From contig JAJRZD010000112.1 in the NCBI GenBank assembly GCA_024275415.1, positions 1 to 32,000 of the forward strand: 32,000 nt of DNA. Direction: 5' to 3'. The notes beneath the pieces are model-generated. The model had not been told where the DNA came from, made no database searches, and saw only the letters and a list, made by a program, of their open reading frames with translations. Shown piece by piece: positions 3,427 to 12,986 of this stretch (position 1 is the stretch's first letter; every line of letters begins with the position of its first letter). Origin of the DNA: an archaeon. GTDB taxonomy: Archaea; Asgardarchaeota; Thorarchaeia; Thorarchaeales; Thorarchaeaceae. A program made the translations under genes and the position numbers.

Positions 3427-3747
3427 TTATATCTGTAACCTGATTTTGATGTGGGAGGTGTCATTCACCTCGTACGAGATTCTACCTCCGTGTTTTTCAA
3501 TAAGAAGCCTGATTGTGAACAAATCAAGATTCAAAACGGTATTCTGGGGGGAGCCACAGTGGATATCTCCCACAAGCAATTTCTCAAGATTGTAGGGCAC
3601 CTTAATCCCAGACAGGAAAGAATCAATCTGTTTCATTGTCGTACAAAGAAGCACAAGACTAGAATCGAGTAATTGCCAACAACATCTCAAGTTATTGGTC
3701 ATGCCAGTGCGAGATATTGTAAGATGTAGAGCAATATTTGGTATCAT
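3427..3747 (-). pseudogene. Possible degenerate HATPase_c C-terminal remnant
   Basis: C-terminal LDLFTIRLLIEKHGGRISYEV resembles the GLGLxIVxxIVExHGG kinase tail, but the G-box glycines, H-box and N-box are absent. Confidence 0.25.
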
Positions 3748-3798
3748 TCACACTAGGAATCAAAGATAGGGGCATCGCTCCTCTCGGACACTGACAAT

Positions 3799-3805
3799 AA
3801 AAAAA
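3799..3805 (-). terminator. Oligo-T tract (T7) after the hdr-mvh operon
   Basis: Pyrimidine-rich TTTCCTTCAATCCTTTTTTT on the minus strand, just after the SECIS-like structure; typical archaeal termination signal. Confidence 0.45.
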
Positions 3806-3842
3806 GGATTGAAGGAAAGTGCGGGGCGACCCTTGCGAGGTC

Positions 3843-3877
3843 GTCCAGCTCAACCCGAGTTTCAGTTGAGCCTTCAT
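3843..3877 (-). promoter_or_regulatory. Eukaryote/Asgard-type SECIS element (3' cis-acting RNA)
   Basis: Minus-strand RNA AUGAA-GGCUCAACU-GAAACUCG-GGUUGAGCU-GGAC: UGAN/NGAN tandem G.A core, about 9-bp upper stem, AAA in the apical region; about 93 nt 3' of an in-frame TGA at a conserved Cys/Sec position. Confidence 0.75.
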
Positions 3878-4038
3878 CCACCGCCCAGCACTAGATCCTT
3901 CCGGGCTATCTCGTGCAGCTCTCCGTCGTCGTCTTCACGAACGATGACCATGTGGGCCGCACATGATAGTCAGCAGTCATAGCAGCGCACGACCATCTCA
4001 AGGAGATTCAGCACGCCTTCAGGTATCTCTTCTGTCAT
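3874..4038 (-). CDS. vhuU: Selenocysteine-containing small subunit of the F420-non-reducing [NiFe(Se)] hydrogenase (VhuU/MvhU)
   Basis: Hand translation: MTEEIPEGVLNLLEMVVRCYDC-U-LSCAAHMVIVREDDDGELHEIARKDLVLGGG*. TGA codon 23 (3972..3970) occupies the first Cys position of the L2 motif (normally RAYDPCxxCxxH). GGAG RBS upstream; the adjacent MvhA lacks this motif. Confidence 0.9.
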
Positions 4039-4049
4039 CTTGATTTCTC

Positions 4050-5366
4050 CTATGTTTTTACAAGCGGATCCGGCAGCTTCAAACTGTCCAGAGCCTTATC
4101 CTCAAAGATCTGCTTTGCAGCAGTCATAAGGGATTTTTCGATTCCTGCGATATTATTGTTGGTTGCCACAATCAGGTTGGCATGTACCAGCATCCCTTCC
4201 TCATCGCTCGTGTAATTATGCAGAAGGGTTCCTCGTGGAGCTTCAACGATTCCAACTCCATCGCCAGCCTTTGGCTCGACATCGGTGAGCTTGATATCAT
4301 CACTGACAATCAGTGGGTCCTCTAAGAGAATCTTGATCCATTCGGCAGCCTGCACAAGTTCGACAATTCTGGCATAGTGGTAGACGAAGGTGTGGTGTGA
4401 TGGTCTACCTACGAGGTCTCTCATCTCCTTGAGAGCTTCCTGTGCAAGAGGAGTTGCCATCTTCTCTGCGACATTGCACCTTGCCAATGTGTTGGCTCGC
4501 CATATGCCATCCGGATAGCCTGCTGGCTTGTAGTAGATGTGTGTTGCATACGAGTGGTCAGGGATGTGCTCACCATAGTACTTGGTATAATCCTTTGGCT
4601 CGAAGTCTGCAACAACCTTGCCATCAGGACCCATAACCCGGACATTGCCCTCGTAGATGTCCAAAACACCATTGTTTGTCAGTCCGATATAGTATGTGGG
4701 AGTGACTGCAAGCTTTGTGATGACATCGATGTAGGCATTCACAACTGTCTTTGCCAGCTCGACGGTCTTATTCACATTCTCAAACAGCTCGGGGATTTGC
4801 TTTAGCCATTTGTCACGGTCTTCCTCTGTCAGTGCATTTAGCATCCCTCCGGGTATCGCGGTAACTGGATGTATTGCCTTTGCACCGACATCTCGGATAA
4901 GCTCCTGTCCGAATTGCATGATCTTGATTGCCTGTACTGTGACATCAGGAAGGTGCTTTAGCACGGCAGCGACGTTTCTCACAGCTGGATCCGCAAAGGG
5001 ACCGAACACGAAGTCGGGTGCAGCAAGTGCGTAGAAGTGGATTGCATGCGACGAGAGCTGCTTCGCCTCTATCATCAACCTGCGAAGCTTTACCGCGGCA
5101 GGTGGTGGTGTTACATCCCATGCAGCCTCTACTGCCTTGACCGACGCAAGGTGGTGAGGTATCGGACAAATCCCACAGATACGAGGCGCAATCCGTGGAG
5201 CCTCTTCCATTGGTCGTCCTGTAAGGAACTTCTCAAAGAACCTTGTGGAACCAACATTGTATTGGATGTCTTTGACCTTGTTGTCCTTCCCGAGCTTGAT
5301 TGTCAGAGCACCGTGCCCTTCAAGTCGTGTGACTGGGTCTATCCTAATTGTCTTTTCTTCGCCCAT
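4050..5366 (-). CDS. mvhA: F420-non-reducing [NiFe] hydrogenase large subunit (group 3c, VhuA-type, C-terminally split)
   Basis: N-terminal IDPVTRLEGH, L1 motif RICGICP, EAPRGTLLH; ends LVKT* with no C-terminal DPCxxC. Confidence 0.95.
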   Translation of the reverse strand: MGEEKTIRIDPVTRLEGHGALTIKLGKDNKVKDIQYNVGSTRFFEKFLTGRPMEEAPRIAPRICGICPIPHHLASVKAVEAAWDVTPPPAAVKLRRLMIEAKQLSSHAIHFYALAAPDFVFGPFADPAVRNVAAVLKHLPDVTVQAIKIMQFGQELIRDVGAKAIHPVTAIPGGMLNALTEEDRDKWLKQIPELFENVNKTVELAKTVVNAYIDVITKLAVTPTYYIGLTNNGVLDIYEGNVRVMGPDGKVVADFEPKDYTKYYGEHIPDHSYATHIYYKPAGYPDGIWRANTLARCNVAEKMATPLAQEALKEMRDLVGRPSHHTFVYHYARIVELVQAAEWIKILLEDPLIVSDDIKLTDVEPKAGDGVGIVEAPRGTLLHNYTSDEEGMLVHANLIVATNNNIAGIEKSLMTAAKQIFEDKALDSLKLPDPLVKT

Positions 5367-6302
5367 TTAGGCTTCCTCCTGTGCTTGCTTCATATCCTCG
5401 CGTCGAACCCGCATCCTATTGAGATGGCTTGTACCATACGTAAACCTATAGAATGTCCCAAGAGGGTCTTTGACCTGCTCAACAAGCTTGTCTGGTTCTA
5501 TGGGTGCATATGTGCCTAACATCGACATGGCAGCAGCACCATAGTCTGACATGATTGGTGGAGGTGGTCCAAAACATCCACGGCAAGTCACACCCTTGTT
5601 GACACACTGACCTTCGCAGAGACCCCATGTACTAGATCCTAGGCATATGTATCCTTGCTCAAGTAAACATCTCTCAGGGTCAGCCTTTCCTGTGAACGGC
5701 CTAAGAATCTCCGTGATTGGAGTTTCCTTTTTCTCTCTCGAGCAATAATGACAGACCGTGTGAGGCGGGAGGTCAAGAGTTTCGCCTGCAAGGAGCGCGT
5801 TGATGGCTGTTGCGATTAACTTGGAAGTCGGAGGGCAACCTGGAAGATAGATGTCAAAGTCCACGTATTCTGAATTTGGCCTGACAACAGGCTCAATCCG
5901 TGGCAAGTTCTCTGAGGGAACCTTTCCATCTTTGAATGTCTTGTTCTCCCTGAATTTCACATCATAGCACTCTTCAATGTCGGACTGGTTTGCCAATGTT
6001 GGGATGCCCCCAAAACACGAACAAGAACCAAATGCTATCAGGATCTGGCATTTCTCACGCATGACTTTCAGGAGATGGATGTCCTCCTCTGTTCGGGCCA
6101 TGCCTTCATAGAACCCGACGACTATTGATTTGTCTTCGTAGTTCTCAAGATGGTGGAGCTTGAAATCAGCCACCGCCTGCCAGTATTTGATTTCCAGTTT
6201 CGGTAAGATATCTGCTAGTCCAAGATGAATATCGATCAGGCTCTGAAAGCATCCCCAACAAGAGGAGCCTTGCCCCATCGCTACAGGTACCGGGTCACTC
6301 AT
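5367..6302 (-). CDS. mvhG: F420-non-reducing hydrogenase small subunit
   Basis: SCWGC, FYEG, FGSCSCFGG, LPGCPP, TVCHYC, CLLEQGYICLG, CRGCFGP Fe-S motifs. Confidence 0.93.
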   Translation of the reverse strand: MSDPVPVAMGQGSSCWGCFQSLIDIHLGLADILPKLEIKYWQAVADFKLHHLENYEDKSIVVGFYEGMARTEEDIHLLKVMREKCQILIAFGSCSCFGGIPTLANQSDIEECYDVKFRENKTFKDGKVPSENLPRIEPVVRPNSEYVDFDIYLPGCPPTSKLIATAINALLAGETLDLPPHTVCHYCSREKKETPITEILRPFTGKADPERCLLEQGYICLGSSTWGLCEGQCVNKGVTCRGCFGPPPPIMSDYGAAAMSMLGTYAPIEPDKLVEQVKDPLGTFYRFTYGTSHLNRMRVRREDMKQAQEEA

Positions 6303-6304
6303 TC

Positions 6305-6538
6305 TTAGGCCTCCTTCATGGAATAGACAAGTTCATGGTTCTCTTCACCAGCAACCTCGATATCGCCCCACTTGAGCATCCCCAGCAGATTCCAGACTAC
6401 CAATTCGGTTGCCAGTCCAGTCTTCTGAGATATCACGGTCACGGTGTTTGCGCCGCCACTCAACGCCTCTTTTATCATTTTGCGTTGCTGACGTACATTG
6501 CTATGCTTTTGCTTGAAGTACAACGAGAATTGTTTCAT
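6305..6538 (-). CDS. Small (77 aa) winged helix-turn-helix-like protein inside the hdr-mvh operon
   Basis: Start moved to ATG 6538 (MKQFSL), overlapping the mvhD stop (ATGA). IKEALSGGANTVTVISQKTGLATELVVWNLLGMLKWGDIE has a wHTH pattern; stop is 2 nt from the mvhG start. Confidence 0.7.
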   Translation of the reverse strand: MKQFSLYFKQKHSNVRQQRKMIKEALSGGANTVTVISQKTGLATELVVWNLLGMLKWGDIEVAGEENHELVYSMKEA

Positions 6539-6978
6539 CGCCACTCCCTCTTGATTGGTCCAAGTTCCTTCACTTGGTCGATAAGTGTCCTCACTCCATC
6601 GGCAAATATCTGGGCTTCTGAAGCACTGGCCCACTGTAAGCGGACTCTCTTTGGGTTCACACCTGACTGCTCGATGACTTTCTCCATCAGTGCCCATCGT
6701 GCACGAGCCTTCAAGTTTCCACTCGTATAATGGCAGTCGCCAGGATGGCATCCGCTTACCAACACTCCGTCAGCTCCCATGTCAAGTGCTGCAAGGATGA
6801 ACTCCACATCGATTCGCCCTGTGCAGTTCACGCGCAAGATACGAGCGTTCGGAGGATATTGTATCCTCGAAGTGCCAGCAAGGTCTGCACCTGCGTAAGA
6901 GCACCAGTTGCAACAATATGCGATGATTCGTGGTTCCCAGTCAGGGTCCATCTTGCTTGTTGTGGCGATTGCTACCAT
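6535..6978 (-). CDS. mvhD: Hydrogenase delta subunit ([2Fe-2S]), all-Cys form
   Basis: YCCNWCSYAGADLAG, RVNCTGR, GCHPGDCHY, WASASE. Start moved to ATG 6978, which overlaps the hdrA' stop (TGATG). Confidence 0.93.
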   Translation of the reverse strand: MVAIATTSKMDPDWEPRIIAYCCNWCSYAGADLAGTSRIQYPPNARILRVNCTGRIDVEFILAALDMGADGVLVSGCHPGDCHYTSGNLKARARWALMEKVIEQSGVNPKRVRLQWASASEAQIFADGVRTLIDQVKELGPIKREWR

Positions 6979-8756
6979 CACGCACCACCCCCTGGAGTTG
7001 CGACTGGGACACACAGATATGCTTCTACCATTGCCATGATCTGCTCATTCGTTGAATGCAACATGATTATCGCGTTGCTTGGGCATGCCGCTGCACAGGT
7101 ACCGCATCCATGGCATTTGGCCTCGGTCACGTACGCAATATGGGGGTCTCGTGACATGTCCCAGCTTATCGCTCCGTAAGGACATGCTGTGATACAGGTG
7201 GCACAGGATGAGCACAGGTCTGGGATGACACGCGACACTGTTGATTCAATCTCGACTGCACCTTTTGCCATCAGTCCCACTGCTTTGGCTGCAGCCCCGC
7301 TCGCATCGATAACTGATTCCGAAGCGTTCTTGGCAGCCTGTGCAGCACCCGCAATCATGATTCCCGCGGTGTGCGTTGTGACAGGGTTCAGCTTCACATG
7401 TTCGGGATTGAAGAAGCCATCCGAGCTTCTCGTGAGGCTAAAGGTATGGCTCACTTCCTCTATCCCTTCTGGAGGCACCATTGCCGTGGCAAGAACGATG
7501 ATGTCTGGGTTGAATTCCATATCTGTGTCTGCGAGGACATCTTTCCAACGCATGGTGATCTTACCATCATTCACCTCTACTTCAGGTTTGGCGTCCGGAG
7601 GATACTTTGTGTAGATGACATGCTTCTGCCGAGCAACTCTCTGAAAGTCCTCGTGCTCCTTGCCGTAGGTCCGGATGTCCTGATAGAGAATGACTACCTC
7701 ATCAAGTCGATCCGCCATGATGCCCGCTGTCTTTGCCAGTGCTGAACAGCAATACCGCGAGCAATGCTCGTGTCCTTTCCAGCCCGGCTCGCGAGAGCCG
7801 ACGCATCCGATAAAGGCGACCTTCCTGACTGGCTTCCCGTCACTCGGTCTGATGAACTGCTGCTCATCAGGTCTTCCTTGCAGGTCTCCCAGAGTCATGA
7901 TATCTAATGATTTGTCATAATTATAGAGACCCACTGGGACGTATGGTTGGAATCCTGTAGCCACTATCACGGCTCCGACCTCATACTTCTTGTGTTTCTT
8001 CAAGCCTTCTACTGAAACCTCCACCTCGAAATTGCCTATGTACCCTTCGAAGTTCACAATGACTGCGCCGGTTCGAATCTCTATGTTCTTGTGCTTTCGA
8101 ACACGATGAATCATGGGTTCCAATACCTCATGACCTGGCTTGTCACCAGGAAACATATGGGCCCACTTCCGGACATTGCCGCCAAGCTCCCTTTCTCGCT
8201 CGATGAGCACTACCTCAAACCCTCTGTCTGCGATATCAAGGGCCGCCCTGAGCCCTGCAATCCCTCCACCCACGACAAGTGTGCGAGGAGTGATCTCAAC
8301 CTTTTTGATTGGCAATGGCTCAAGATTTGCAGCCCGTGCCACCGCCATCCGAACTAGGTCATTGGCTTTGGCTGTAGCAGCTTCAGGTTCTCTCATATGA
8401 CACCAAGAAACGTGCTCGCGTAGATTCACCTGCTCGAATAGATAACGGTTTAATCCGGCTTCTTCAACCACTCTCCGGAATGTAGGTTCGTGCATCCGCG
8501 GTGAGCAGCTGGCTACGATAACTCTGTTGAGGTTATGTTCATGTATCATGGTTCTGATGGTTTCCTGACCTGCATCACTACAGGTGAACATCTCATGAGT
8601 TGTAAATACAACATTTGGTAGAGTGGCTGCTGTTTTTGCCACATCCTCGACATCCACAACTCCTGCAATGTTATGGCCACAATGGCACACGAACACACCA
8701 ATCCGTAGCTCTTCCTTTGATTCCATGGCGTTCATTCCTACACTGTCTTCTGTCAT
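6978..8756 (-). CDS. hdrA: Heterodisulfide reductase subunit A paralog (HdrA'): has N-terminal and C-terminal ferredoxin domains, lacks the central ferredoxin insert
   Basis: IGVFVCHCG, SCSPRMHEPTF, NLREHVSW, VVGGGIAG FAD motif, GCVGSR...CSRYCC, C-terminal CSSCATCITACP/CHGCGTCAAACP. Start ATG 8756 overlaps the hdrB stop. Confidence 0.92.
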   Translation of the reverse strand: MTEDSVGMNAMESKEELRIGVFVCHCGHNIAGVVDVEDVAKTAATLPNVVFTTHEMFTCSDAGQETIRTMIHEHNLNRVIVASCSPRMHEPTFRRVVEEAGLNRYLFEQVNLREHVSWCHMREPEAATAKANDLVRMAVARAANLEPLPIKKVEITPRTLVVGGGIAGLRAALDIADRGFEVVLIERERELGGNVRKWAHMFPGDKPGHEVLEPMIHRVRKHKNIEIRTGAVIVNFEGYIGNFEVEVSVEGLKKHKKYEVGAVIVATGFQPYVPVGLYNYDKSLDIMTLGDLQGRPDEQQFIRPSDGKPVRKVAFIGCVGSREPGWKGHEHCSRYCCSALAKTAGIMADRLDEVVILYQDIRTYGKEHEDFQRVARQKHVIYTKYPPDAKPEVEVNDGKITMRWKDVLADTDMEFNPDIIVLATAMVPPEGIEEVSHTFSLTRSSDGFFNPEHVKLNPVTTHTAGIMIAGAAQAAKNASESVIDASGAAAKAVGLMAKGAVEIESTVSRVIPDLCSSCATCITACPYGAISWDMSRDPHIAYVTEAKCHGCGTCAAACPSNAIIMLHSTNEQIMAMVEAYLCVPVATPGGGA

Positions 8757-9628
8757 TGGCTCACCCCACAACAGTCAATTACCGAATGAGGGTCAATCTT
8801 GTTCAGCTCGACACCCAACATGTCCTCGTCCAAGCCCAATGCTGGCCCTAGAAACTGGGTGATGGGTAGCACTGGTATCTTCTGTCGATCACTGGTTCCC
8901 CCTCCGAACTGTACCTGGGTCAGCTGGATATCACAGAACACACAAGCTGTCACAATCCCGTCTGCTCCAGCTTTGGTAACGTTATCGATCTTGTCCAGTC
9001 CAATGGTCGTAGCGACATCCTCATCCATTGCGAGCATCGGACCCCCACAGCAACGTGTCTTTCCAGGATAGTCCACTGCTTGTCCGCCCACAGCTTCAAC
9101 CAGTCTATCCAGGATAGTGGGGTTCTCGGGGTCGTCAACATGGACTATCTCGTAGGGACGTGTCACATGGCATCCATAGTGCGCCGCCATTTTGATGCCA
9201 TTATAGGGCTTGACAACAGCCCGTTCTATCTTGTCGAATCCAATATCCTCTGCCAAGACCTGTAAGAGGTGACGCACACGGACTTTACCACTGTACTTCA
9301 AACCCTCTTCTGCAAGTAAGGAATTCACCTCATCTCTAGCACGGATATCATGGTCAAGAAAGTGCTTGTTCGTCTTGAGAGACCCTGAACATGCACCACA
9401 AATTGCAAGGATGTCCTTTTCCTCGCGCTCAGCCAGTGCCAGTATTCTTCCACTCATAGACGCAAAAGCCATCCTGTCCATGGATTCGACGTATTGAGCG
9501 CCACAACAATTTGTATCTTTCAGCTCGATGACATTTACTCCGAGCTTCTCAAGGACCGCGATAGTGGCAGCCTCGTATGCTGGAAGTCTGACTGGGGTGG
9601 TACAGCCTCTATAGAGCAGCATATCCAT
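8753..9628 (-). CDS. hdrB: Heterodisulfide reductase subunit B
   Basis: Two CCG domains (YRGC...CCG...CGAC; HYGCH...CCGG...CVFC). Confidence 0.93.
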   Translation of the reverse strand: MDMLLYRGCTTPVRLPAYEAATIAVLEKLGVNVIELKDTNCCGAQYVESMDRMAFASMSGRILALAEREEKDILAICGACSGSLKTNKHFLDHDIRARDEVNSLLAEEGLKYSGKVRVRHLLQVLAEDIGFDKIERAVVKPYNGIKMAAHYGCHVTRPYEIVHVDDPENPTILDRLVEAVGGQAVDYPGKTRCCGGPMLAMDEDVATTIGLDKIDNVTKAGADGIVTACVFCDIQLTQVQFGGGTSDRQKIPVLPITQFLGPALGLDEDMLGVELNKIDPHSVIDCCGVSQ

Positions 9629-10179
9629 TAGCTCCCACTCTCCTCAGCAGCTTTCTTTCGTTCGAAATACCTTTTTCTCAACTTTCCAACGAACTCGTTG
9701 TTCATGTGTAGCTCAGGGTTCAGTCCAAGGTCCTCGCGTTCGTCCTCTTGAAAATCAGTGTATGCATCTTTCAGCATCCAACCATCCTCCAACACAGTCT
9801 TCACAGCCTCTTTGAAGACCCGCGGGACATGTCCTTCTCGTGCTGCAATCGTTCGAACAGCAAGGAATATCTCGGCAGGCGACACTCCCTCTTGGCAGCG
9901 TTCCTCACACATCCTGCAATTAAGACAGAGCCACGATTGGTCGCTCGAAAGAACTTCCTCTCGAAGTCCAAGGATGATTTTTTGGATCATTCGTCTTGGC
10001 CTGTATAGATCGGTCGCATTGGCCACAACACAGCTAGCAGTACATATGCCACATTGGATACACTTGTTGATGGCTTCACCGCCTTCTACCTTCTCAACCT
10101 CTTTGGCAAAAGCTGAGGTTGGAACATGAATAGATTTCTCTTGACCTTTTGTTGTACAAGTATGCATTATATTCGTCAC
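9628..10179 (-). CDS. hdrC: Heterodisulfide reductase subunit C
   Basis: CIQCGICTASC and WLCLNCRMCEERC 2x[4Fe-4S] motifs; GTG start overlaps the upstream stop. Confidence 0.92.
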   Translation of the reverse strand: MTNIMHTCTTKGQEKSIHVPTSAFAKEVEKVEGGEAINKCIQCGICTASCVVANATDLYRPRRMIQKIILGLREEVLSSDQSWLCLNCRMCEERCQEGVSPAEIFLAVRTIAAREGHVPRVFKEAVKTVLEDGWMLKDAYTDFQEDEREDLGLNPELHMNNEFVGKLRKRYFERKKAAEESGS

Positions 10180-12986
10180 CTCGATTTGGTTGTTTCAAGC
10201 TCAGCCTCTGGAGCCAGACTTTCTATAGTATGTTCGGAATCCTGGCCTGCAATCATTCCCCCCAGTACAATTGATGCTCTCATGGCGGCCGCACTTCCCG
10301 CAGTCACTGAATCGGGTATGTCCTTCGGCCCATCAGCACAACCACAGACGAAGATACCCATCTTGCTGGTATCGACAGGAGAAGTGAGCTCGTTCCGTAC
10401 ATCGATGTAGCCTTCATCTGAGAGGGCGATTCCAAGCTCCTCTGCTAGTATATTGACATCATCTGCAGGAAGCAGACCTGGGCTTATCACCAAAAGGTCA
10501 TGCTCAACCTTCTCAACGGAGCCAGTTTCTGTGTTCTCTACTTGGATCATGAGGTTGTCATTCTCAGGGTTCTCGTCTACTTCACCAACACGCCCTCGGA
10601 CAAAGTTGACGCCAAATCGGGTCTTTGACATCTCGAAGAACTCCTCGAACCCTTTGCCAAACGCTCGAATATCCGCATAGTATATAGAAACCTTCGCCTC
10701 TGGGTCATGTTCTCTAGCCATCACAGCATTCTTGATGCCATACATACAACAGACCCTGCTACAATGGGGAACATTCTTCTGAGTATCTCGCGCTCCGACG
10801 CATTGCACGAACCCGATGTTCTTCGGCATTTTTCCGTCGCTCAGGCGTATCAGATGACCTTGAGTAGGACCCGCTGCATTGATGAGTCGCTCGAATTCCA
10901 TGGCTGTTATGACATTCTTGAACTTACCATATCCAAGCCGTTTGTATTTGCTGACCTCAAAGAGCTTGTATCCAGTGGCAACTACAATGGCTCCCACGTT
11001 CAGGCTCAACCGTTCCTCCTTCATCGAGTGATCGATGGCATCTCTATCACATGCTTCCACACAGTTCATGCACTCACAACATATCGTGCAGTTCAGACAG
11101 CGCCCTGATTCATCGAGGGCAGTATCTTCATCAAATCCAAGCTCGACCTCTGAGAAATCGCCTTTACGACTTGCGATGCTCTGATGGGGCATCTCAGCTC
11201 TGGCTTGTGGTATGAATGTCGATTGGTCTATCTTTGGTCTTGCAATCCTGTAGACCTCAGGGTCTCGCCCTGCTCGAATATCCAGTCCGTTAAGGTATCT
11301 ATCGATAGATATTGCAGCCTCCTCACCCTGCCCAACAGCCTGCACTACTGTGGCTGGGCCAAGAACACAGTCACCACCAGCGAAGACTCCCTCATTACTC
11401 GTTTGCAATGTGACTTGATCTGTGATAATGGTACCCCACTCGGTAGTATCCAAATCGTTGTGGAGTGGAATTGGTTCTACAGACTGACCAACTGCGATAA
11501 TCATAGTGTCTGCAACGACAGTGAACTCCGAATCAGGTATTGGGATAGGTCTCCTTCGCCCTGAGTGGTCAGGTTCACCCAGACGCATTCGGATGCACTT
11601 GACACCTTGCACAGTACCTTTCTGGGTCAGAACCTCTACTGGATTCGTGAGGAACATGAAGCGGATCCCCTCCTGACGGGCCATCTCTACCTCTGATGGG
11701 ATGGCTGGGAGTTCGACCTGTGAGCGCCGGTATATCATTGTGACTTCGGACGCACCCAGACGAAGAGCTGTCCTACACGAATCCACGGCTGCATCGCCAC
11801 CCCCGATGACCACTACGCGTTCACCTAATTCTACAGGCTTGTGAGACGCGACTCTATCGAGAAAATCAATTGCATGGTATACACCTTTCGAGTCTTCACC
11901 TGCAATCATCAGTTTGTTACTGTGACTGGCGCCTGTAGCTATGAAGACTGCCTTGAATCCTTCATCTTTGAGCTCATCGATTGATTGTATCTCTCTGTCA
12001 CAGACGAACTCGACGCCGTGCTTTGCGACCCATTGGATCTCTTCCTGAAGGATGTCCCTTGGCAGTCGGTATTCAGGTATCGCATATTTCAGCAGTCCTC
12101 CCTCTTCTGATCTCTTCTCAAAAACAGTCACAGGATACCCTTTACGGGCAAGATGATATGCACATGAGATTCCTGCTGGTCCGGCACCCACAACGGCAAC
12201 CCGTTCACTCCTCTTGATTTGAGGTTCCACCGTGACCTGTGTGTTGTGTTCTCTCTCGTAGTCTGAGAGGAAACGGTGGAGATTCCTGATGCTAACGCTC
12301 TCGTCATACTCTCCTCGTTGACACTGCCCTTCACACCAGCTTACACAGACCCTTCCGAGAGTGCCCGGGAATGGTATTGCATCCCGCACAATTCTGATGG
12401 CTTCTGCATATTTCTTTTGATTCATCAAAGTGACGAATGCCTGAGCATTCACGCCTGCTGGACAATTAATCCTGCAGGCTGGGTGGTCTCGTTTATCAAT
12501 CGTGTACACATTAGGTGTAGCCTGTGGGAACGGTAAATAGGTCGCTTTCCTGAAGCCCAATCCCTCATCAAATTCATTTGCAACCTCGATAGGGCAGACC
12601 TCAGAGCAGTCGCCACATCCCGAGCATTTGTCTTCCAGAATGTATCGAGGTTTCCTGATGACTTCCACATGAAAATTGCCAGCTTTGCCAGTCACTCGCT
12701 TGACTTCAGAATACGTCAGAAGCTCGATATTTGGATGTCGTGCAACCTCACTCAATCGTGGCGTCAGTATGCATGCTGAACAATCAAGGGTAGGGAAGGT
12801 CTTGTCTATTGCTGCCATATGTCCGCCAATGCTAGGCGTCTTCTCGACAAGATGGACTTTGAAACCTTGGTTTGCGATGTCCAATGCGGCTTGCATTCCA
12901 GCAACACCACCACCTATCACGAGTGCACTGGGTTCCTGGGTGTCCTTATTTGCAGGATTTGTTTGCGTAGGATGATCAACAGTCAT
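10176..12986 (-). CDS. hdrA: Large HdrA-like protein (HdrL type): HdrA FAD core with an inserted GltD/NfnB-like NAD(P)H:flavin oxidoreductase
   Basis: VIGGGVAG, DKTFPTLDCSACIL, CSGCGDCSEVCP; then PACRINCP...GRVC (GltD Fe-S), VGAGPAG, IGGGDAAVD, IYRRS; returns to HdrA at CCECMNCVEAC, TAMEFER, QCVGAR...CSRVCCMYGIK. AAGGAG RBS. Confidence 0.93.
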   Translation of the reverse strand: MTVDHPTQTNPANKDTQEPSALVIGGGVAGMQAALDIANQGFKVHLVEKTPSIGGHMAAIDKTFPTLDCSACILTPRLSEVARHPNIELLTYSEVKRVTGKAGNFHVEVIRKPRYILEDKCSGCGDCSEVCPIEVANEFDEGLGFRKATYLPFPQATPNVYTIDKRDHPACRINCPAGVNAQAFVTLMNQKKYAEAIRIVRDAIPFPGTLGRVCVSWCEGQCQRGEYDESVSIRNLHRFLSDYEREHNTQVTVEPQIKRSERVAVVGAGPAGISCAYHLARKGYPVTVFEKRSEEGGLLKYAIPEYRLPRDILQEEIQWVAKHGVEFVCDREIQSIDELKDEGFKAVFIATGASHSNKLMIAGEDSKGVYHAIDFLDRVASHKPVELGERVVVIGGGDAAVDSCRTALRLGASEVTMIYRRSQVELPAIPSEVEMARQEGIRFMFLTNPVEVLTQKGTVQGVKCIRMRLGEPDHSGRRRPIPIPDSEFTVVADTMIIAVGQSVEPIPLHNDLDTTEWGTIITDQVTLQTSNEGVFAGGDCVLGPATVVQAVGQGEEAAISIDRYLNGLDIRAGRDPEVYRIARPKIDQSTFIPQARAEMPHQSIASRKGDFSEVELGFDEDTALDESGRCLNCTICCECMNCVEACDRDAIDHSMKEERLSLNVGAIVVATGYKLFEVSKYKRLGYGKFKNVITAMEFERLINAAGPTQGHLIRLSDGKMPKNIGFVQCVGARDTQKNVPHCSRVCCMYGIKNAVMAREHDPEAKVSIYYADIRAFGKGFEEFFEMSKTRFGVNFVRGRVGEVDENPENDNLMIQVENTETGSVEKVEHDLLVISPGLLPADDVNILAEELGIALSDEGYIDVRNELTSPVDTSKMGIFVCGCADGPKDIPDSVTAGSAAAMRASIVLGGMIAGQDSEHTIESLAPEAELETTKSR

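Follow-up and report, generated by a model that had tools for sequence, protein, structure and literature searches.

A probable eukaryote-like SECIS sharing the stop codon of vhuU in a Thorarchaeota genome

The 3' end of the gene vhuU, in the 32,000-nucleotide stretch of Thorarchaeota DNA analysed here (the window), carries an RNA element that we take, with a probability of about 85%, to be the SECIS of this gene, of the Asgard "eukaryote-like" type. The identification draws on sequence comparison and predicted folding. On the minus strand, the AUGA of its core consists of A3877, U3876, G3875 and A3874, and the last three of these bases are also the in-frame stop codon of vhuU. The AUGA hairpin is, as far as covariation and predicted folds indicate, one arm of a three-way junction of about 91 nt (3901..3811). 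Table 1 gives the positions of the features discussed below.

Table 1. Genes and RNA features in the window (MFE: minimum free energy).
Feature	Positions	Strand	Description
vhuU	4038..3874	minus	54-codon ORF from ATG 4038, ends in UGA (translation)
Sec codon UGA	3972..3970	minus	in-frame TGA, kept in 78 ortholog loci
vhuA	5366..4050	minus	large-subunit N-terminal 438 residues, stop UAG; Pfam NiFeSe_Hases, E 1.9e-26
vhuG	6302..5367	minus	operon gene directly before vhuA
77-residue ORF	6305-6538	minus	between mvhD and vhuG; helix-turn-helix-like sequence
mvhD, Cys-type	7014..6535	minus	operon gene
hdrA, Cys-type	8771..6978	minus	operon gene
HdrA/GltD-like fusion	12986..10176	minus	operon gene; hdrC and hdrB come next
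helix I, 5' strand	3883..3901	minus	in coding sequence, codons K-D-L-V-L-G; pairs with 3827..3811 (MFE)
K-turn-like 5' side	3874..3879	minus	sequence and conservation; includes stop U3876-A3874
helix II (SECIS upper stem)	3847..3872	minus	3872..3864 pairs with 3855..3847, 9 bp including two G.U
core 3' side	3843..3846	minus	G3846, G3845-A3844 (the GA), C3843
hairpin 2	3828..3842	minus	5-bp G-C-rich stem (3842..3838/3832..3828), CGCAA loop, right after GA-C
helix I, 3' strand	3811..3827	minus	in 3' UTR; MFE fold and covariation
seven-T run	3799..3805	minus	5 nt after the element

Judged by its translation, vhuU encodes a separate C-terminal piece of the large subunit of a [NiFeSe] hydrogenase, the small subunit of a split enzyme that carries the selenocysteine. 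When the internal TGA is read as selenocysteine (Sec), the product contains the motif R-C-Y-D-C-U-L-S-C-A-A-H followed by a tail of 25 residues; it has the traits that define VhuU, the selenocysteine subunit of F420-non-reducing [NiFeSe] hydrogenase, namely an ORF of about 50 residues that follows vhuA and has Sec in place of the first Cys of the C-terminal nickel motif C-x-x-C-x-x-H. The gene starts 11 nt downstream of vhuA, in an operon with the order hdrCBA-mvhD-vhuG-vhuA-vhuU. The mvhD and hdrA genes of this operon are Cys forms, so that the window offers no second SECIS for comparison, and the 77-residue ORF of Table 1 has no Pfam match. In the maturation of [NiFe] hydrogenases, an endopeptidase removes the tail after the conserved His; the codons of a VhuU tail cleaved in this way would be left free to serve as spacer and helix strand.

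One objection to this reading of the gene is that the UGA at 3972..3970 could be a true stop, or a codon that does not specify Sec, in which case vhuU would be a truncated or dead remnant and the structure at its end would be unrelated to recoding. Three observations speak against it. In tblastn comparisons, the U of VhuU falls on the catalytic Cys of Cys-type homologs, which is the first and Ni-binding Cys of D-P-C-x-x-C-x-x-H. Both the frame and the motif C-x-x-C-x-x-H continue beyond the UGA in all 78 ortholog loci. Finally, the genome, a MAG of 127 contigs that is 93% complete, has a complete Sec pathway, clustered on about 4.3 kb of contig C69 (8094-12333; loci L001, L002, L185 and L187): the cluster holds a tRNA-Sec (57.9 bits), SepSecS (E 1e-118), SelB/EFSec (269.7 bits) and a PSTK-like gene that scores below the curated cut-off. 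A true stop is thus very improbable, and we read the codon as Sec in what follows.

The motif at the Ni site, D-C-U-L-S-C (3961-3987, minus strand), has a Cys where Cys-type enzymes carry a Pro (D-P-C). The same D-C-U is present in every Asgard Sec-vhuU ortholog seen, from Thorarchaeota and from Loki-like, Hel, Jord and Frey genomes, which makes it a family trait and not a local oddity.

A preliminary description, made from the sequence alone, had read the terminal TGA (3876..3874) as the UGA of an AUGA...GA core, followed by a stem and an apical AAA, at about 93 nt from the Sec codon. All the bases that it named are in place, RNAfold gives the same 9-bp hairpin with an AAA-containing loop, and exactly 93 nt, or 31 codons, separate the two UGAs. 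The apical loop is GAAACUCG (3863..3856), with the conserved AAA, and two of its adenines are invariant among 49 Thorarchaeota sequences. A3873 stands between the UGA and the stem, opposite G3846; the GAC on the 3' side of the core shows no variation among 17 orthologs and very little among 49. Measured against shuffled sequences, the 35-nt hairpin has z = -3.8, with none of 200 shuffles folding as well, and the full 95-nt element has z = -3.2. A fold of 121 nt with extra flanks is not significant (z = -0.78), and is superseded by the folds of the exact element.

The sequence also suggests a geometry for the core. Tandem sheared G.A pairs, G3875.A3844 and A3874.G3845, would form a kink-turn-like core below the 9-bp helix, closed by the pair G3879-C3843 and carrying a 3-nt bulge made of G3878, A3877 and U3876. 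The sequence fits this closing pair, the G-A-U bulge and both G.A pairs, and the elements of a K-turn (the G, the C and the two GA) are all conserved; the core may adopt K-turn geometry.

The preliminary description had remarked that ribosomes must melt the base of the element. They must melt more than that: the 5' strand of the lower helix, helix I, is coding sequence (3901..3883). Its paired segments are 3901..3896 with 3816..3811, 3892..3888 with 3822..3818, and 3886..3883 with 3827..3824. In the MFE folds of almost all orthologs, the last coding nucleotides pair with the 3' UTR, and a small second hairpin is present.

Covariation across orthologs, proposed at the outset as a check on the hairpin, was computed on a MAFFT alignment of 49 Thorarchaeota sequences, with a four-helix structure written by hand. 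Overall, 89.3% of the cells are paired, compared with 33-50% when the partner is slid by 1-3 columns; 21 of the 33 pairs change on both sides, and none of 500 shuffles reaches any of the observed measures. Helices 1 and 2 of this structure are paired at 89% and 91% (again 33-50% with the partner slid), and both sides change in 8 of the 10 pairs of helix 2, the helix that uses the codons L/T-G-G. The AUGA hairpin comes out of the check well, with 8 of its 10 pairs changing on both sides. Hairpin 2 is paired at 95% in the same set; in the classes other than Thorarchaeota, it is paired at 98% and three of its four pairs covary.

These properties of hairpin 2 lend themselves to another reading, in which the AUGA hairpin is a 3'-end, terminator or stability structure, and the recoding signal lies elsewhere, for example in hairpin 2 and the lower helix. 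Three G-C pairs stand in a row in hairpin 2, whose loop is short and whose conservation equals that of the AUGA hairpin. Together with the long G-C-rich lower helix on which it sits, it superficially resembles the SECIS of methanogens; moreover, a T run begins 5 nt past the element. However, the GAA_A bulge that such a signal should contain is absent. The pattern of conservation, with AUGA, GA and the AAA of the loop invariant and the sequence of the stem free, suits a recognition motif better than a terminator, and the same motifs recur in every selenoprotein family examined. As for termination, oligo-T alone suffices in archaea. The seven-T run of Table 1 is likely to be such an oligo-T terminator, and T-rich tracts lie downstream of the element in most orthologs. 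All things considered, a terminator or stability role for the AUGA hairpin is improbable, and we retain its identification as a SECIS.

A methanogen-type SECIS formed by hairpin 2 and helix I was also considered as a candidate. That type has two stems, a GAA_A bulge and three G-C pairs in the upper stem; hairpin 2 shares the three G-C pairs, and the candidate was rejected for want of a GAA_A bulge in 3901..3811.

The preliminary description had assigned the element to the eukaryotic or Lokiarchaeal type, as opposed to that of methanogens. The assignment stands with respect to methanogens and to the published Asgard type I model, but it does not extend to the covariance models of eukaryotic SECIS: a cmscan of positions 3500..4300 against Rfam, at E <= 10, returns three chance matches and no SECIS family. 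The term "eukaryote-like" thus expresses a resemblance, not a membership. According to the texts of PMC4989117 and PMC11227280, SECISearch3 likewise gives no match for Asgard elements, and SBP2 is absent from Asgard genomes.

The type I model, to which frhA/vhuU belong, is one of two eSECIS-like models, types I and II, described in the text of Huang, Xiao and Zhang (2024, PMC11227280) from more than 400 Asgard genomes. It has a core GA_[G/A]A, here G3875-A3874 and G3845-A3844, invariant in 17 orthologs and nearly so in 49. The stem, for which it allows 7-15 bp and up to 2 mismatches, is here 9 bp with no mismatch, and the loop, for which it allows 8-20 nt, is here 8 nt. The model also places the element from -30 to +600 nt relative to the 3' end of a selenoprotein gene, where the genome possesses Sec machinery; here, the element overlaps the vhuU stop.

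The lokiSECIS of Mariotti et al. (2016, PMC4989117), as described in the text of that paper, consists of AUGA, a 9-bp stem, an 11-nt A-rich loop, and GA, or AA in VhuU. The element of the window belongs to the same gene family as the lokiSECIS of VhuU.1, and shares with it an AUGA placed before a stem of about 9 bp, an A-rich start of the loop, and a G as last base of the loop, here G3856. The two differ in the A.G position 3873/3846, which here comes between the UGA and the first Watson-Crick or G.U pair, in the 3' dinucleotide, GA here and AA in Loki VhuU, and in the size of the loop, which has 8 nt here, or 10 with the terminal U.G opened, compared with 11; among Thorarchaeota orthologs, apical loops range from 8 to about 12 nt.

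Set beside the type I SECIS of eukaryotes, the element has the same AUGA...GA non-Watson-Crick core, the adenines of the apical loop, a lower helix below the internal loop, and a position on the 3' side from which it would act at a distance. Contrary to the eukaryotic element, its upper helix is shorter, its 3' strand carries an extra hairpin, and part of it lies in coding sequence. Such comparisons matter because Asgard SECIS have been proposed as a link between archaeal and eukaryotic selenocysteine insertion.

The extra hairpin gives the element the layout of a k-junction (Wang, Daldrop, Huang and Lilley 2014, PMC4005666): hairpin 2 (3842..3828) follows GA-C and precedes the 3' strand of helix I. 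The unpaired stretch on the 5' side is longer here, with 5-6 nt before GA, and the likeness is one of secondary-structure topology, as read from the sequence, rather than of a demonstrated fold. We propose tentatively, and at slightly less than even odds, that the Asgard SECIS is in general a k-junction-like three-way junction and not a single hairpin. It would consist of a lower helix, in many cases formed with the final codons of the gene, of the arm that carries AUGA and GA, and of a short conserved G-C hairpin, and this third hairpin could be the missing recognition surface. The evidence is the presence, directly behind the GA, of a hairpin whose loop is of (Y)GNRA type; it occurs in the genes vhuU, selD and vhuD, and across Thorarchaeota, Loki-like, Hel, Jord and Frey lineages.

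For vhuU, a covariance model built from the Thorarchaeota alignment, R1, matches only two sites in the 3.5-Mb genome. One is the window, with 112 bits; the other, with 105 bits, belongs to a second vhuA-vhuU pair on contig C46 (about 3716-5265, locus L196), whose vhuA is 69% identical to that of the window, and whose vhuU has an almost identical AUGA hairpin and junction. The model also detects the elements of vhuU genes on Hel, Jord, Frey, Atabey and Loki-like contigs, with E-values from 1.6e-12 to 0.011, and finds no element at the Cys-type loci searched. In the alignment of these elements outside Thorarchaeota, 27 of 32 pairs covary, a count that fitting to the model biases towards structure. 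R1 misses the elements of selD and vhuD: it includes vhuU coding sequence, and is therefore not a general SECIS detector.

The selD gene of the same genome (contig C127, stop at 35278, loci L110 and L125) has one in-frame TGA and is Sec-containing. It ends in ...E-F-P-UGA, and this UGA is both the stop and the first UGA of the SECIS core, preceded by C and not by A or G. The element has an upper arm of type II, a 5-bp hairpin with a GCAA-containing loop after the GA, and a lower-helix strand that pairs with the codons E-T-E. This layout is kept in 19 Thorarchaeota genomes, this one and 18 relatives, where 98.6% of the structure is paired: the lower helix at 100%, with three covarying pairs, and the hairpin at 96%, with four of its five pairs covarying. 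Forms of vhuD with two in-frame TGA, Sec-vhuD, came out of a protein search in five Loki-like genomes, and the MFE folds of six of the seven 3' ends inspected have the order of the junction: lower helix, AUGA, upper stem, GAC or AAC, small hairpin, lower helix.

This architecture may be new; the comparison with PMC4989117 and PMC11227280 bears on their texts. Neither text mentions a three-way junction, the third hairpin or a tetraloop. That of PMC4989117 has no mention of a lower helix or a second hairpin; that of PMC11227280 does not contain the words "three-way", "hairpin" or "tetraloop", cites the k-junction paper solely for the GA_AA pairing, and describes a model that covers the core, the upper stem and the loop. 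The same text reports family-specific [U/C]GG_C[C/U][A/G] pairs in the lower stems of frhA, whose counterpart here is the GGC/GCC of helix I. The extended architecture seems the part worth following up. If the proposal is true, the third hairpin might stack on the lower helix, or bind EFSec or L7Ae, and it might let Asgard archaea use a eukaryote-like SECIS without SBP2. With three covarying helices, a fixed G-N-N UGA and an extra hairpin, the 91-nt junction is a defined RNA to probe or to crystallise, and may also be used as bait for a binding factor.

We now turn to the overlap between stop codon and core. Among 64 distinct Sec-vhuU 3' regions, the stop is the UGA of the core in 61, which span at least five Asgard classes, although kinship makes these cases less independent than their number suggests. 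The base before this UGA is A in 56 of them, U in 3 (Jord/Frey), C in 1 and G in 1. The last codon is always G-N-N (GGA 46, GAA 6, GCA 3, GGU 2, and GUA, GAU, GGC and GGG once each), and its residue may be Gly, Glu, Ala, Val or Asp: a first base that is fixed while the amino acid is free indicates a constraint at the level of the RNA. The stop, for its part, would be fixed as UGA because the same three bases form part of the core. The spacing from Sec to stop takes two values, 81 nt in 49 cases and 93 nt in 12. The other three orthologs stop at UAA or UAG, and their AUGA hairpin lies 1 to about 41 nt further downstream; the overlap is thus not obligatory.

The arrangement as such is already published. 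It was stated explicitly for Loki VhuU.1, whose AUGA doubles as the UGA stop, in the text of Mariotti et al. (2016, PMC4989117), and generalised in 2024 in that of PMC11227280, where UGA stops are said often to overlap AUGA in Asgard selenoprotein genes. The window is a Thorarchaeota example of it, and alone changes little.

In one Loki-like genome (G032), a vhuU (L026, 2899-3025) has an in-frame UAA early in its tail. It still keeps the downstream codons N-V-G-L-G and an AUGA hairpin, about 41 nt on. The early UAA could be a tolerated truncation of a cleaved tail, a recent pseudogene, or an assembly error.

By burying the stop in the core, the element may discriminate between the two UGAs of vhuU, the first being recoded and the second read as a stop, as the preliminary description had suggested. 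In a rival view, the SECIS is real and the overlap is a by-product of compaction, without any discriminating role: the frame would run to the first stop, which happens to be the UGA of the core, and any UGA so near would terminate anyway. This view accommodates the three orthologs that stop earlier and keep the hairpin downstream, and it agrees with a VhuU tail that is cleaved, so that protein function would put little constraint on where the tail ends and how long it is. It also finds a precedent in Methanococcus maripaludis, where a SECIS directly following the coding region keeps its function (PMC9622424). However, compaction has to account for an overlap present throughout the five or more classes mentioned above, and for the same overlap in 19 of 19 Thorarchaeota selD genes, whose C-terminus is not a cleaved tail. 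The two fixed spacings from Sec to stop also argue that the arrangement is maintained, though maybe for compactness alone. We regard compaction without a discriminating role as rather unlikely.

Indirect support for discrimination comes from the stop of vhuA, located 163-210 nt upstream of the core. In 65 distinct Sec-vhuU loci, which are related and do not count as independent trials, this stop is TAA 33 times, TAG 32 times, and never TGA. Yet TGA is the commonest stop of the long ORFs of the genome (42%), and mvhD, hdrA, hdrB and the hdrA-gltD fusion, further upstream, end in TGA. Swaps between TAA and TAG at the end of vhuA are repeatedly seen among close relatives. The lack of UGA at this stop fits an action of the SECIS at a distance, and offers a natural gauge of its upstream reach; the SECIS of Methanococcus acts over 88-679 nt (PMC9622424).

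A plausible mechanism in which the stop is discriminated would run as follows. While the A site holds the Sec UGA, the start of the junction lies about 69 nt further downstream, and the structure would still be folded, ready to recruit the archaeal EFSec/Sec-tRNA complex, its presumed binding partner. Once the terminal UGA reaches the A site, the lower helix would have come apart and the upper helix would have its 5' arm in the mRNA channel; at that moment there would be no SECIS, and hence the release factor would terminate. Each ribosome would destroy the signal, which would have to refold before the next one arrives. The bacterial SECIS similarly overlaps coding sequence, is unfolded by each ribosome and must refold for the next. 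However, it directly follows the Sec codon on the 3' side and lacks a G.A core, and its binding protein is SelB, through the C-terminal domain.

With the queries used, the selenoproteins found in the genome are the two VhuU and SelD. A PF00578 query yields no peroxiredoxin with an in-frame TGA in this genome, and none of its eight or nine genes with an MvhD domain has one; when PF02662 is searched in 61 genomes of the phylum, the top matches listed are only Cys-type MvhD. A permissive motif search of the genome (NUGA, stem, AAA loop, GA/AA) was also tried in the search for other SECIS, and set aside: its 255 matches are mostly noise, perfect 9-bp stems occurring only at the two vhuU sites. Elsewhere in the genome, contig C6 contains a regular 31-nt repeat resembling a CRISPR array, in about 20 copies spaced by about 75 nt (10004-11438 in reverse-strand numbering).
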